Virus record (IMG/VR): IMGVR_UViG_3300028025_000089
Direction: 5' to 3' (one strand)
Origin: a virus
Taxonomy: Duplodnaviria > Caudoviricetes
Length of the DNA stretch: 64,000 nt
Shown: in pieces, positions 161 to 29,140 of the stretch
How the letters are laid out: each line of letters opens with the position of its first letter
How positions within the stretch are numbered: position 1 is the first letter of the stretch
Program-made: the position numbers and the translations under genes
The notes under the pieces: model-generated
What the model was told of the DNA's origin: nothing
The model's database searches: none
What the model saw: only the letters and a program-made list of their open reading frames with translations

Positions 161-259
161 AGTCAGGTGGAATTTTGGTCCAGGTGTGGTTCGATCCCAC
201 ACTTTACTGAGAAGTAAGAGCAACTAAGGGCAACACAGGTTCGAATCCTGTCCTGACTA
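161..259 (+). ncRNA. tRNA-like RNA with two T-loop arms
   Basis: Acceptor AGTCAGG/CCTGACT (161-167/252-258); T arm ACAGG-TTCGAAT-CCTGT (235-251); D-like arm TGGA/TCCA (168-182); second arm GTGTGG-TTCGATC-CCACAC (184-202); GNRA hairpin TTACT-GAGA-AGTAA (204-217). Confidence 0.65.
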
Positions 260-263
260 CAAA

Positions 264-351
264 GTGTTGTTCCCTTGAGAAAGGAAAATAGAGTGGCTAC
301 AAGGTTGTTGCAACAACTAGTAAAGACTAACACAGAGGACTTCTCAACCTC
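264..351 (+). ncRNA. candidate kissing-loop structured RNA in the tRNA array
   Basis: P1 264-269/328-333; hairpin 270-273/283-286; hairpin 335-338/348-351; their loops are complementary over 7 nt (TTGAGAA 275-281 / TTCTCAA 341-347); perfect palindrome GTTGTTGCAACAAC at 304-317. Confidence 0.45.
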
Positions 352-357
352 ATATTT

Positions 358-432
358 GGTGTGGTAGCTCAGTAGGTAGAGCAAGGAGCCGGAAAACTCC
401 TGTGCCGATGGTTCGATTCCATTCCCATACCA
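358..432 (+). tRNA. tRNA-Phe-like gene with an 8-nt anticodon loop (CCGGAAAA)
   Basis: Acceptor GGTGTGG/CCATACC; D arm GCTC/GAGC; anticodon stem AGGAG/CTCCT around the 8-nt loop 389-396; T loop TTCGATT. Confidence 0.75.
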
Positions 433-438
433 CAAACA

Positions 439-518
439 TTGTGACGCAGGTGCAACGTCGGTCTCATGAGCCGAATTGGGTCGCCCCCCGTCGGAGGTTC
501 GAGTCCTTCAGTCACAAC
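439..518 (+). tRNA. aberrant tRNA(CAT) with truncated D arm and long variable arm
   Basis: Acceptor TTGTGAC/GTCACAA; only 12 nt precede the anticodon arm TCGGT-CTCATGA-GCCGA (458-474); 18-nt variable region containing GGG-tcgc-CCC; T arm 493-509. Confidence 0.6.
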
Positions 519-604: not shown

Positions 605-677
605 GCTGATATAGCTCAATGGTCAGAGCAGGACGCTTATATCGTCAAGGCTATGGGTTCGAGTCCCGTTATCAGCA
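605..677 (+). tRNA. tRNA-Ile (TAT)
   Basis: Acceptor GCTGATA/TATCAGC; D arm GCTC/GAGC; loop CTTATAT with anticodon TAT at 638-640; T arm ATGGG-TTCGAGT-CCCGT. Confidence 0.85.
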
Positions 678-899
678 CTGGGAGTGTTAGCAGTAGAGTT
701 CAGCTTAAGAATGGAAGTGGAGAGCACTTAAAAATGAGTCCACAAGGCATTAAGCCGTTTATTCAGTTTGAGGGCGATAAAAACTGACGTTTTTAGGAGA
801 AAATTTTACGATAATAAAATGAACCCATGGTGTTAGTAGGATTGATCCCCTCTTCCATGTAAAAAAATGTGACGGATGATCCCAAGTTCGTCACGACTT

Positions 900-1359: not shown

Positions 1360-1638
1360 ATGACAGAGGAACAAAGAAAGGCGATAGATAATATAATGGA
1401 TTGGTTTGACTTTGAAAAAGTTCATAAAACCATGAAAGCTCTTCGATGGGAATGGTTAAGTGCTGAAGAAAAGATTCCTTGTCAAGGTGAAATTAGAGAA
1501 GAAGCAAGACGGTTATTAACTCAAGCAATAGAAACCGAAATGAGTATTGGATCAGGAGGACTTCAAGTTACCTACATTCCAACTGAAGGATTTTTAAAAC
1601 TTGAGTTTATAGTGTCTGAATGGGACGCTTTGATATAA
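1360..1638 (+). CDS. hypothetical protein
   Basis: 92-aa ORF, normal composition, tightly packed with neighbours. Confidence 0.7.
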   Translation: MTEEQRKAIDNIMDWFDFEKVHKTMKALRWEWLSAEEKIPCQGEIREEARRLLTQAIETEMSIGSGGLQVTYIPTEGFLKLEFIVSEWDALI

Positions 1639-6779: not shown

Positions 6780-7670
6780 ATAGATTATCCAATCAGGAAA
6801 AGTTTTGTCAGATTAATTGACGTGTAATTGAAACGAATGTTTCATCTTGGAATGATAAAGATATTGGGCAGTATATGGTCCATTAAAATAAACCATGAAA
6901 GTGGGATAAAGTGAATTATTTGTGTTAGATAGTTTGCGGCTTCTTCGGGAGCTCGAGTATACAAGCGGGATACCGTTTAACCTTTAGTATCGAGGGCAAC
7001 GCTGTAGAGAAAGTGGTTAGATGATTTGGCGATGTGGGTCGTCAAATTGAGGTGGGAACACCAATAGGAATAACTCGTAGGAATTTTGCAAAACAAAGTG
7101 TTCCAACACTTTCATTGCGAGTTCCAATATTAGAGGATACTTAAAACCGAAAGGTATGATAACAAACGGGTGGTGCCGACATTATCCTTGATGAACTCCT
7201 ACCAAGGGGTTAATCTCGAAGTAGTCTTAAAGTATGGAAATGGGGACATTTCAGAGAGTAGTTGAGTATTTCGTTGTTCAAAAGATAACGAAGCCCGTGA
7301 CGGACCACTACTTTCACAATCCACGACACAAAACTTATGGAAGTTGTTATTTTCCAAAAAATAATTATTACATTAAGGAAAAGTGTCCGTCAGGTTTGAA
7401 TGAAAGGTGACTACATAGTAATGAGCAGTTCATTGCACACAAAGATCCCAAGTCGATGTGTAATTTTTCGAAAAACCTTTAATCCCGCAAGGACGAACTG
7501 GGGAGGCATCCTCGGAAAGAGTTAAAGTAGAATGAGAGTAGTTCAGACCTCAAGGAGTGGTATACCTAAAAGACCGTCACTGAGAAATACTTCTCAAAAG
7601 GAAGTGGATAGGAGTAGAAACAATAATGACTCTAAAGGTTCTCACAAATAGGTGTAATCTCAACCTTTTA
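6780..7670 (+). ncRNA. giant structured ncRNA, probably GOLLD family (boundaries approximate)
   Basis: About 890 nt with no ORF in the track, GC-richer than the flanks. C(UUCG)G hairpin 6939-6952; GNRA hairpins 7147-7156 and 7237-7252; long-range helices 7219-7225/7307-7313 and TGACGGAC (~7298-7305)/GTCCGTCA (~7385-7392); terminal helix AAAGGTT (~7635)/AACCTTT (7662-7668); tandem promoters upstream and a terminator downstream. Confidence 0.7.
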
Positions 7671-7707: not shown

Positions 7708-8268
7708 TTAGGGACGATGTGAATCGATCCCTTTTTTTGTTTTTACTGATTGGTAAATAAGATCAATAAAGTTTAACATTTCATCATGTGTCATTGAATT
7801 TTTTGCATGGTTACATGCGGTGCTTATAAATTGTATGTTTCCTTTCACATACCCTAAATTACTATTGATCCTATCTAAAGAGGCGGTATTGATGTTATTA
7901 CCATTTTCATTTGGTTGAACTAATTTAACACCACTATAAACACAAATGCCACTTTGTATTTCCCATTGATCTAAAAGATCTTGTAAATCAATGTTATACT
8001 CATGATGTCTTTTTTTTAGTCTTCTGAAATGCTCTCTAAGTCCTGTAAATTGATCTCTACGGTTGTTTCTTTGTGGTTCTAAGTATTTAATATTTTCATT
8101 AACATATTGTTTTAAGTGGTTGTGATTATCAATACCACAACATTTTCTTGAGCAATAGTTTTTTCTACCAATTTTTTCGTTTCTAACTATTTCAGACTTA
8201 TCTTTCAAAAACTCAATACCACAAGATGGGTTAGAACATATTGTTAATTCTTTTTTTCTTTGTCTCAT
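7708..8268 (-). CDS. free-standing His-Me finger (HNH / endonuclease VII-like) homing endonuclease
   Basis: N-terminal Cys motif C..PSC...YCSRKC; C-terminal C.YSG...SLDRINSNLGYVKGNIQFIS.ACN.AKN. Confidence 0.8.
   Translation of the reverse strand: MRQRKKELTICSNPSCGIEFLKDKSEIVRNEKIGRKNYCSRKCCGIDNHNHLKQYVNENIKYLEPQRNNRRDQFTGLREHFRRLKKRHHEYNIDLQDLLDQWEIQSGICVYSGVKLVQPNENGNNINTASLDRINSNLGYVKGNIQFISTACNHAKNSMTHDEMLNFIDLIYQSVKTKKGIDSHRP
7710..7738 (+). terminator. intrinsic terminator downstream of the large ncRNA
   Basis: AGGGACGAT-gtga-ATCGATCCCT followed by a T run. Confidence 0.6.
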
Positions 8269-8368: not shown

Positions 8369-8786
8369 TGGTGGACCTAGAGGGCTCCGACTCCCTCGTC
8401 CGGCTCGTCTTGTCTAAAAGACAACTACATGTTTAGATCAAGGTTTTTCATACCTTCCGAAATATTTGGTTCCTATTTTTACATTGTTACCAAAAACTGT
8501 GTCGAGTTCACTTTGTTACGGTAGCCCTCTGAACGAGACCGTTGTTTCCTTTTAGAGTGAAAACCAACTCATCTACGACTTCTGTTGCTAGGTTATCTGT
8601 CTGACCGACCCCCCGTTTCCGTATCTAATTAAGCTACAGTAACTTCAGAACCTCTTACTAATCCAAGAGTTTCCATTTTGTTTAGCACATTGCCAGTTGT
8701 GTTTTGAATCAGTTTTTAACGAGATTAATTCAGTCCCGACATGCTTCTTTTATTCAACCAACGCCCGTCAAATCCAATATAGGCCC
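8369..8786 (-). ncRNA. ssrA: tmRNA (SsrA)
   Basis: 5' GGGCCTA-TATTGGATTTGAC; 3' T arm GAGGG-AGTCGGAG-CCCTC, then TAGGTCC-A-CCA. Acceptor stem has the G3:U70 alanine determinant. Internal tag frame at 8694-8629. Confidence 0.93.
8629..8694 (-). other. tmRNA tag reading frame (A)GNVLNKMETLGLVRGSEVTVA*
   Basis: Resume codon inferred as GGC after AACT; open for 21 codons to TAA. Confidence 0.75.
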
Positions 8787-23103: not shown

Positions 23104-23820
23104 ATGAAAGTCGGAGAATTAAAATCAAAAATAGAAAATCAACTAGTTGAGTCATACAAAAAAAATTCATTTAAAGAAAATATTTTTATTTTTGAAGAAT
23201 TGGTTTTGAAAAATAAAAACATTGCAAAACTTTTTTTCTTATATGATGAGTTGTCAAATAAAAAAGGACTTTCAGAAAATGTTGCAAACGAATTCATAAA
23301 TGAGTCAATCGTGGCTTATGAAAATTTGATCAACAAAGTTAACCCACTACACTTAAGAGAATTAAATGCTTGGGCTGGTCATCAGAAATGTGAAAATAAT
23401 TATGAAAAAATTGATAATTTATTTTCCACAAGTGTTTTGACTCTTGAAAATAAAATTAAAAGTAAAAAAATGATTTTAGAGGAATTAACTCAAAAAGAAA
23501 ATAAAACTAATGAGGTAATAAAAGTTCCATTAAAATCTATGGTTTCTGTGGCAAACAAAACCATATCTAAATTTATTTCTTCTCTAACAGAATCTGAAAG
23601 AAAAGAATTAAAAGTAATTTTAAATACCCCAAAAGAAACTTTGGTTGAAAACTATAACTCTCAAAAAGAAAACGTTATTTCAAAATTGGAAGATCAAAAA
23701 AATAACGAAACCGATTCTGAAACAATTTCAACTATAAATCAAGTGTTAACAAGATTGCAAACAGAATCATTTTCAGAACTGAATTACTATAAGTTAAAAC
23801 AACTTAACGAAGGACTTTAA
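23104..23820 (+). CDS. conserved head-module hypothetical protein
   Basis: 238-aa helical protein between portal and protease; late motif at 23082. Confidence 0.7.
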   Translation: MKVGELKSKIENQLVESYKKNSFKENIFIFEELVLKNKNIAKLFFLYDELSNKKGLSENVANEFINESIVAYENLINKVNPLHLRELNAWAGHQKCENNYEKIDNLFSTSVLTLENKIKSKKMILEELTQKENKTNEVIKVPLKSMVSVANKTISKFISSLTESERKELKVILNTPKETLVENYNSQKENVISKLEDQKNNETDSETISTINQVLTRLQTESFSELNYYKLKQLNEGL

Positions 23821-24005
23821 TTCTTTTTGGATTTTACTTTTTGAATATAGGCGGCCTTTTTGTTTTCCTCCCTTTTTATTACTGAAGGTTTAACAAATTC
23901 TTTTCTCTGAAACAAAACACTATTTTGCTTTGTTTTAATAACTTTTCCTTTAAGGTCTTTTAAAGCCTTTTCAATATTACCTTTTTTTACTTCTACAATT
24001 AACAT
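23817..24005 (-). CDS. rpsU: ribosomal protein bS21
   Basis: MLIVEVKKGNIEKALK.LK.K...RKEFVKPSVIKREE.KKAAYIQK matches the Bacteroidota bS21 pattern. Confidence 0.85.
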   Translation of the reverse strand: MLIVEVKKGNIEKALKDLKGKVIKTKQNSVLFQRKEFVKPSVIKREENKKAAYIQKVKSKKN

Positions 24006-27238: not shown

Positions 27239-29140
27239 ATGGGAGCATTATTAGAATCAGGTCTTGTTGGTAACATCGGGTTAAAACACCTTAAAGTTAT
27301 TAAAGAAGACACAATTAACAAATGGGACAAATTAGGCTTTTTGGATGGTCTAAAAGGTCACTTAAAAGAAAACGTAGCACAGTTATATGAAAACCAAGCT
27401 TCTTTCTTGATCAACGAAGCAACTGCTGATGGAAGTTCTAACGGAGCATTCGAAACAGTTGTTTTTCCAATCGTAAGAAGAGTTTTCTCTAAATTGTTGG
27501 CTAACGACATCGTATCAGTACAAGCTATGAACTTACCAATCGGTAAATTGTTCTACTTTGTACCAAGAATCCAAGGTTATTCAAACGCAGGATCAATTGC
27601 GGATTTCCCGAATAACCCAACAGGTGGTGATCATTACGCACCTATCGGTTCTCCTGAAGCTGTTAATTCAGGAAATGATAATCCTAACCAAGGTTATCCA
27701 GGTGGACCAGGTTATCCTTACAGAAAAGATCTTTACGATTTATTCTATGAAGGAAATGAGGCAAGTTTAGATCCTCCAGGATTATTTGACTACTCTAAAG
27801 GTAGATGGACTGCAGTTACTGCAACTGCCGCAACACAATTATGGTCTGCAGGAACTTTAGTTGACGCTCAAATTCCAGCTGGTAACACAAGAAAAGTTAT
27901 TATCAAACTTTGTGGTTTTGCTAACGCAGGTAGTGGTAAACTTATTGGTCCTGATGGTAATGAAATGGATACTGAATCTTTCCTTTCAGATCTTAAAATC
28001 TACGGTGGAGCTGGATTATCGGCATCTACAACACCATGTGACGTTATTAAAAACGGAAATAATCAATACTTACCATTGTTATTTAGAGTTGTGACTCAAA
28101 TCTACGGTAAAGGTATCGTTCAACCTACAAGTTCAAACGCACAAACACAATTTACTAATAACGGAAACAACTATAACAGCCCTTCAAATCCTCCAACAGG
28201 AAATGGTGGTAGTTACAATGATATCTGTGATAATAATGGTTGTATCTATTTAGAAGTTGATTTATCTTGTCCTGTATGTGCTGATTGTGACTCAACATCA
28301 TTAGATGGTTACACAGGAACAACTATTTTCTCTGCATCTACAGGTGGTTCATTCACAGCATGGTATAGAAGATATGCTAACCTTGAGTTTGAAGATCAAA
28401 TTGGTGAGGTTTCTTTCGACTTAGAATCTGTAACAGTTTCTGTAACTGAAAGAAAACTAAGAGCACAATGGTCTCCTGAATTAGCTCAAGACGTTGCTGC
28501 ATTCCACAACATCGACGCTGAAGCTGAATTGACAGCATTGTTGTCAGAGCAAGTAGCGGCTGAGATCGACCGTGAAATTTTACGTGACTTACGTAAAGGT
28601 GCGGCTTGGAACTTACGTTGGGACTACAACGGATGGAGAAGAATTAACGCTACTACATCTTACACTCAAAAAGACTGGAACCAAACTTTGATTACAGCAA
28701 TCAACCAATTGTCAGCACAAATCCACAAATCTACATTGAGAGGTGGTGCTAACTGGATCGTTGTATCTTCTGAGGTTTCTGCAATCTTTGATGACTTAGA
28801 ATACTTCCACGTATCTAACGCGGCTCCTGAGCAAGATCAATACAACATGGGTATTGAAAGAGTTGGAACATTATCAGGTCGTTACCAAGTTTACCGTGAT
28901 CCTTACTTCCCACCAAACCAAGTTTTGATCGGACACAAAGGAACTTCATTGTTAGACACAGGTTACATTTACGCACCGTATGTTCCTCTACAATTAACAC
29001 CTACAATGTATAACCCATTCAACTTCACACCTATCAAAGGTATTATGACAAGATACGCTAAGAAAATGGTTAACAACCGTTTCTACGGACGTATCACAGT
29101 TGATGGAGTTAGAACATTCGACTTAAGAGAATTGAGATAA
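27239..29140 (+). CDS. major capsid protein (T4 gp23-like)
   Basis: PIVRRV, VQAM..P.GKLFY, RKLRAQWSPELAQD, AEAELTALLSEQVAAEIDREI, YAPYVPL, GIMTRYA; C-ending codon bias. Confidence 0.96.
   Translation: MGALLESGLVGNIGLKHLKVIKEDTINKWDKLGFLDGLKGHLKENVAQLYENQASFLINEATADGSSNGAFETVVFPIVRRVFSKLLANDIVSVQAMNLPIGKLFYFVPRIQGYSNAGSIADFPNNPTGGDHYAPIGSPEAVNSGNDNPNQGYPGGPGYPYRKDLYDLFYEGNEASLDPPGLFDYSKGRWTAVTATAATQLWSAGTLVDAQIPAGNTRKVIIKLCGFANAGSGKLIGPDGNEMDTESFLSDLKIYGGAGLSASTTPCDVIKNGNNQYLPLLFRVVTQIYGKGIVQPTSSNAQTQFTNNGNNYNSPSNPPTGNGGSYNDICDNNGCIYLEVDLSCPVCADCDSTSLDGYTGTTIFSASTGGSFTAWYRRYANLEFEDQIGEVSFDLESVTVSVTERKLRAQWSPELAQDVAAFHNIDAEAELTALLSEQVAAEIDREILRDLRKGAAWNLRWDYNGWRRINATTSYTQKDWNQTLITAINQLSAQIHKSTLRGGANWIVVSSEVSAIFDDLEYFHVSNAAPEQDQYNMGIERVGTLSGRYQVYRDPYFPPNQVLIGHKGTSLLDTGYIYAPYVPLQLTPTMYNPFNFTPIKGIMTRYAKKMVNNRFYGRITVDGVRTFDLRELR

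Follow-up and report, generated by a model that had tools for sequence, protein, structure and literature searches.

The tRNA arrays of phages harbour several abundant RNAs of unsettled role, among them GOLLD, ROOL and the RNAC and RNAD of T4, the latter two being tRNA-like and encoded within the T4 tRNA cluster. RNAC and RNAD are small late phage RNAs (PMC9697503), and GOLLD (RF02032) and ROOL, from phage tRNA islands, are ornate cages of 400-800 nt with kissing loops between chains and variable linkers in a conserved frame (PMC12286853). Theta ribozymes, of the HDV-like kind, sit behind phage tRNAs; in HDV-like ribozymes the catalytic C starts the J4/2 junction, and the tRNA-associated theta form has its 5' G within 5 nt of the tRNA 3' end (PMC10879173). 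The stem-loop arrays of TIGR-Tas, also phage-borne and made of repeated units with two variable segments, have as their hallmark box C/D motifs flanking 8-12-nt spacers (PMC12045711). The window analysed here, a whole stretch of 64,000 nt from a tailed phage (IMG/VR record IMGVR_UViG_3300028025_000089), carries at 264-351 (+ strand) an element that falls within the broad class of non-coding, structured RNAs on the tRNA strand inside phage tRNA arrays. The wider result of its analysis is a widespread family of RNAs in which a constant knotted scaffold surrounds a variable insert. By analogy, this scaffold would be most like a miniature GOLLD or ROOL, with a kissing-loop frame and a variable part, but it measures 70-150 nt, has no sequence match to either and, unlike theirs, its variable part adopts a fold, stays conserved within families and is subject to exchange. 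In contrast to T4 RNAC and RNAD, it is closed by a pseudoknot, has neither T-arm nor acceptor stem and finds no match in cultured phages. It shares with theta ribozymes the nested pseudoknot strand order and the position beside phage tRNAs, but not the catalytic C junction, the conserved P3 loop or, mostly, the place at the tRNA 3' end, and it has a large variable insert. Compared with TIGR-Tas, it lacks box C/D motifs, a long array and a Nop-domain gene, and its inserts are folded and 25-108 nt long. Freshwater-1 RNA (RF02979), a small motif of the same arrays, is a separate element with no overlap with the scaffold; one copy (86 bits) was seen at 1382-1443 (-) of locus L241, in the same kind of phage tRNA array.

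The window copy is an 88-nt RNA gene (264..351, +) whose constant scaffold, 264-286 plus 329-351, encloses an insert at 287..328. The 5' strand of the closing helix P1 (264..269) pairs with 328-333, that is, with the constant 3' strand (329..333) and, through its sixth base, with the final base of the insert, this sixth pair being G-U. Hairpin P2 (270..286), also constant, has 4 bp and a 9-nt loop L2 (274-282); hairpin P5 (335..351) has 4 bp and a 9-nt loop L5 (339-347), and 275-281 of the former loop form 7 Watson-Crick pairs with 341-347 of the latter. The insert, of the family that we call F0, comprises a short single strand, an irregular stem and an apical hairpin (303-318) in which a perfect 14-nt palindrome (304-317) is contained; it is an irregular member, with its short single strand and a U instead of the last C. 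The two 4-bp hairpins with 9-nt loops complementary over 7 nt, the 6-bp closing helix and the palindrome had all been described in an earlier, sequence-only reading of this DNA, and all are present. Such a kissing pair appeared in 4 of 20,000 shuffled 88-mers and in 6 of the 1,453 tiles of the window; the palindrome is commoner by chance (104 of 20,000 shuffles). The nested fold alone shows no extra stability over shuffles (z = +0.59), so the case for structure rests on conservation. For L2 the folding program proposed a GNRA fold instead, which was discarded because loop variants do not preserve it. Against a family model trained on 46 members, itself included, the element scores 61.5 bits (E 1.5e-12), and the model search returned no second significant copy in the window.

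Scans for the constant ends only returned at least 120 stretches in one case and 86 in the other, and the family now holds at least 186 distinct elements in 165 loci, in large phages, mostly within tRNA arrays and with 1-4 elements per contig. Five near-complete genomes (282-362 kb) have 1-3 clear copies each; four copies lie on one contig, and locus L025 has three in tandem with the same ends and unrelated middles. Eight matches in cell genome bins of mixed phyla are read as binned phage contigs. Across members the scaffold sequence is nearly invariant, with P1 (6 bp) continuing without a gap into P2 (4-5 bp) and its loop L2. Inserts span 25-108 nt (median 41 among the 186 elements), and the 144 distinct ones fall into 103 unrelated families. 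They nonetheless follow a common plan: after P2 comes a purine-rich, C-poor single strand, mostly of 8-15 nt, and then a stem P3 of 4-7 bp and free sequence that encloses a loop, itself not conserved among inserts, or further hairpins, several inserts being multi-branched folds rather than simple single strands. P3 is separated from P1 by a bulged base, an A in 82 of the 103 families, and then the C that supplies the sixth P1 pair, and it ends 2 nt ahead of P1 in 84% of families versus 46% of shuffles. Two tail forms were distinguished. In type A (128 elements, the window copy included) the tail folds into a hairpin and pairs with L2 through its loop; in type B (58) it is single-stranded, with a 7-nt single-stranded linker. 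Type A elements adjoin a tRNA, a tRNA-like gene or another copy in 80 of 128 cases; a GNRA-loop hairpin lies just upstream of 55 of the 58 type B elements versus 20 of the 128 of type A, and a motif resembling the T4 late promoter accompanies 33 of 58 versus 4 of 128, respectively. Neighbouring tRNAs are on the same strand in 1058 cases and on the opposite one in 17; the location of the RNA among tRNA genes, reported earlier for the window, extends to the family, whose members mostly lie on the tRNA strand inside tRNA arrays. In two type B elements (L206 1435-1561 and L260 6047-6173, both -) a pair of extra hairpins separates the tail linker from the pseudoknot strand, which marks a second position tolerating insertions.

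Conservation was assessed at two depths. Exact-pattern scans found about 30 close copies with the same middle part, at various positions in various arrays, and over 20 distinct ones 95.9% of the cells of the full structure are paired, versus 34-46% for slid controls. Two-sided changes were seen in P1 (U-A to C-G in 2 close copies) and in P2 (C-G to A-U in 3, U-A to C-G in 1 and C-G to U-A in 1); as P1 and most P2 pairs are paired by construction, it is the kinds of change and not the counts that are informative. The sixth P1 pair, not required by the search, is G-C or G-U in 184 of the 186 elements, and variants of the P5 stem retain pairing. Pairing of L2 with the tail over at least 5 bp holds in 98.9% of the 186 elements as opposed to 32.5% with shuffled tails, so the homologues that the sequence-only reading had proposed to look for exist and retain the loop complementarity. 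The initial scans required the usual L2 loop, and a later one sought scaffolds with a changed loop base. It returned 16 loci, of which 13 were chance matches without a tail, and in all three true members (L415, L425 and L426) the altered loop is matched by a change in the 3' partner, which is the compensatory change in the loop-loop helix that had been named as a check; L415 carries two compensating changes in the partner strand. The inserts of L425 and L426 are also found in members with the usual loop pair, which indicates that their compensatory changes arose separately. L288 is an exception, with a changed tail, an unchanged loop and only 4 consecutive bp. The loop-to-tail pairing is thus real. 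The previous description as a structured RNA with kissing hairpins holds as regards the conserved structure, but the second hairpin is confined to about 70% of members, and in the others the loop pairs with a single-stranded tail; what that description missed were the constant ends and the exchangeable middle.

Related phages exchange inserts at the same site. Among pairs of loci with both flanks at least 80% alike, which are not all independent, 11 have unrelated inserts versus 2 with related ones; L106, for instance, carries the insert family of the window, and L325, with identical flanks, a different one. Four insert types occur with both tail forms. The simplest cause of this exchange would be recombination through the constant ends. 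The F0 insert is itself conserved, with 21 distinct copies at differing array positions and with both tail types, and the window element is 88.5% identical to its copy in the related genome G003, for which aligned DNA averages 70% and the single displayed tRNA match 81%; conservation above that of the aligned DNA argues that the insert is conserved cargo and not filler. Over 3.2 Mb of loci, insert sequences outside scaffolds were found only as isolated 15-16-mers. The palindrome, which in close copies varies as a hairpin does, is present in 16 of the 21 F0 copies and in none of the other 165 elements, and such confinement to one insert family makes it weak ground for the dimerisation element previously suggested, at least as a family-wide signal.

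The virus of the window is a large, T4-like freshwater phage, its terminase, portal and major head genes matching PHROG families. A ribosomal protein S21 gene (23817-24005, -) lies between its portal and capsid genes; S21 among head genes is an arrangement of freshwater phages predicted to infect Bacteroidetes (PMC9723584), and S21 is also present in 3 of the 5 near-complete relatives that carry the element. The host is thus probably a member of the Bacteroidetes. The major capsid protein (27239-29140, +; 633 aa) is 41-43% identical to its nearest cultured relatives over about half of its length. The element lies in a tRNA array, which locus L360 continues 4.4 kb upstream, and GOLLD (7254-7666, +) and tmRNA (8369-8786, -) genes are nearby. 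Upstream of it, 161..259 (+) encodes a tRNA-shaped RNA with a weak tRNA match, in which a second T-loop arm replaces the anticodon arm; in other loci, type A elements often have as neighbours relatives of this RNA that share its ends. The downstream tRNA (358..433, +) has an acceptor-stem bulge and an 8-nt anticodon loop, which ARAGORN reads as a four-base anticodon; at the matching place in L031, a gene that starts alike has an apparently Phe-type arm.

The scaffold is an apparently new RNA family that belongs to no tested family. The element, which the sequence-only reading could not assign either, matches none of the Rfam 15 covariance models at gathering score, nor even at E 10, and 17 other copies gave no match at E 2. 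In blastn searches against cultured phages only the tRNAs were matched, and neither Flavobacterium phage immuto nor the nearest record (G001) gave a match to the family model. Half of the element is unalignable, and profile searches would therefore miss the family. No description was found in the literature searched, where two surveys (PMC5737381, PMC10690425) are the likeliest places for it; the family is apparently uncatalogued, although the 10,006 candidates of the latter survey may include it without a name. A dedicated partner gene travelling with the element was found neither near the loci nor among four gene families tested. The commonest neighbour is an HNH endonuclease (19 of 152 loci), and integrases and transposases are absent from the common neighbours. 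Several known systems were considered and rejected. A Y RNA bound by Ro60/Rsr is not favoured by TROVE (PF05731), absent from the 5 phage genomes with a positive Bacteroides control, nor by the T-loop motif of the Y RNA tRNA-like domain, present in just 1 of 186 inserts. The recombinase of IS110 bridge RNAs (PF01548) and the TnpB of omega RNAs (PF07282) have no gene in the 5 near-complete genomes. Regarding TIGR-Tas, Nop (PF01798) was found in none of these 5 genomes with controls matching in 4 archaea, a search that a divergent Tas could escape; a box D-like 4-mer occurs in 19 and a box C-like 6-mer in 3 of the 186 inserts, and contigs hold 1-4 copies. A CRISPR array or a solitary repeat mimic is not supported either: the 5' part of the scaffold, with up to 3 mismatches, occurs in 2 of 401 Bacteroidota genomes as single copies, these genomes contain no array of it, and a suspected resemblance to the ends of Bacteroidetes CRISPR repeats was not borne out in them. 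Within the inserts, start codons of small ORFs are not enriched and no motif indicates a binding partner.

We tentatively favour, at somewhat short of an even chance, the idea that the scaffold is a stable phage-encoded frame displaying exchangeable decoy or aptamer cargo that acts in trans. Judging from their spacing, type A copies would be released from the tRNA polycistron as the tRNAs on either side are processed; in the window, the tRNA-shaped RNA at 161-259 is the likely source of the 5' processing site of the element, and 5' processing of the tRNA at 358-433 would free its 3' end. Type B copies would be transcribed from a late-type promoter of their own. The knot may clamp both RNA ends against exonucleases and hold the insert in a fixed orientation, leaving the insert as the putative working part in trans, which most likely would engage RNA-binding or anti-phage proteins of the host as their decoy or aptamer, a role to which only the diversity and exchange of inserts point. 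The constant ends may serve also as homology arms, through which recombination would swap cargo in an arms race with Bacteroidetes hosts. Constant ends, 103 unrelated insert families and a P3 held at a fixed register support the display frame, but a fixed-length single strand beside a fixed stem would fit a pairing guide equally. In such a guide or antisense RNA, the scaffold would bind a protein, either one of the host or an unrecognised one of the phage, and the strand after P2, alone or together with the apical loop, would pair with host mRNAs or other targets; this reading seems unlikely to us. It would account for two variable single-stranded segments in fixed places, for a nearly invariant scaffold, as expected of a protein-binding handle, and for the family F1, in which the first 10 nt are kept while the distal hairpin varies freely. 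The variable strands, however, showed no pairing excess to Chitinophagales-order 16S and 23S rRNA, phage tRNAs, GOLLD, tmRNA or, for G003, its own genome, and a 14-mer of the window insert was found in 1 of 151 Bacteroidota genomes versus 8 control hits. Phage start-codon regions did show slightly more pairing than expected (z about 1.7-2.4), which is unconvincing because the effect is small, comes from one among many tests and is equalled or exceeded by the opposite strand; nor do the 5 near-complete genomes hold a Nop, IS110 or TnpB-type gene.

The loop pairing might instead take place between molecules, chaining the RNAs into dimers or rings, as miniature GOLLD or ROOL cages, with assemblies of mixed inserts as the function. 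This reading, which could coexist with that of a display frame, we judge quite unlikely. In the two-hairpin form rough helix geometry sets the ends to be joined 28-39 Å apart and P1 plus one base reaches about 23 Å, so that a type A kiss within one molecule looks strained; the loops are identical in all copies and would permit mixing, the window insert is able to self-pair, and GOLLD and ROOL combine between-chain kissing loops with variable linkers (PMC12286853), GOLLD being encoded 7 kb away. The geometry, however, is a back-of-envelope figure, the 7-nt single-stranded linker of type B suits an ordinary intramolecular pseudoknot, and the palindrome is missing from every other insert family. 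Also unlikely on the whole is a programmable RNA platform, whose knotted frame, protein-binding or self-assembling, would carry more than 100 guides or aptamers swapped by recombination; it would arm large Bacteroidetes phages against host defences or transcripts with exchangeable weapons made of RNA alone, and the RNAs could possibly form mixed rings joined by kissing loops. We give little credence to the idea that the RNA cleaves itself or serves to process the tRNA array and tolerates the insert as a peripheral domain, even though its strands come in an order (P1, pseudoknot strand, P3, P1', pseudoknot partner) like that of HDV-like ribozymes, theta ribozymes sit behind phage tRNAs (PMC10879173) and the window copy begins with a G a few bases past the tRNA-like gene 161-259. 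The linker before the pseudoknot strand has no C, the catalytic base, in 154 of 186 elements, the P3 loop is not conserved, no Rfam ribozyme matches, and only 9 of 171 elements, all among the 120 of type A and none among the 51 of type B, start within 15 nt behind an ARAGORN-called tRNA, tRNA-like genes being uncounted. The theta placement is mostly lacking in the family and in the window involves solely the tRNA-like gene, and the ribozyme once proposed, if of the HDV or theta kind, is unsupported; such a reading also leaves the conservation and exchange of inserts unexplained. A selfish or neutral repeat with little RNA function, spreading in tRNA arrays via recombination or homing-nuclease traffic, would be in keeping with the variable position and copy number, the tandem copies and the HNH endonucleases as commonest neighbours. 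We consider it improbable, given that P1, P2 and the loop pairing all show compensatory changes, that adjacent tRNAs share the strand of the element, that type B has a promoter-like motif of its own and that integrases and transposases are absent from the common neighbours.

This family is small, easily made and separates a fixed frame from an exchangeable cargo, which makes its role testable through insert swaps and partner pull-down. If the inserts were decoys or guides, they would amount to an inventory of the RNA-based counter-defence that abundant freshwater phages carry, and the frame would offer a compact scaffold of natural origin on which RNA can be displayed in bacteria.

The surrounding array has further unusual members. 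At 440-517 (+) a CAU tRNA is odd in combining a reduced D arm with a long variable arm; its neighbour (524-597) is a normal initiator-like tRNA, and 605-678 (+) encodes a tRNA-Ile with a UAU anticodon, uncommon in bacteria. Between this gene and a tRNA-Gly, some 200 non-coding nt without an Rfam match (about 690-890, +) may be another structured RNA. An ORF of 186 aa (7708-8268, -) between GOLLD and tmRNA matches nothing in Pfam, but on visual inspection it resembles a homing endonuclease. An RNase H-like gene (PF04308) lies within the tRNA array of L360 (3702-4157, +) and occurs near the element in 8 loci.
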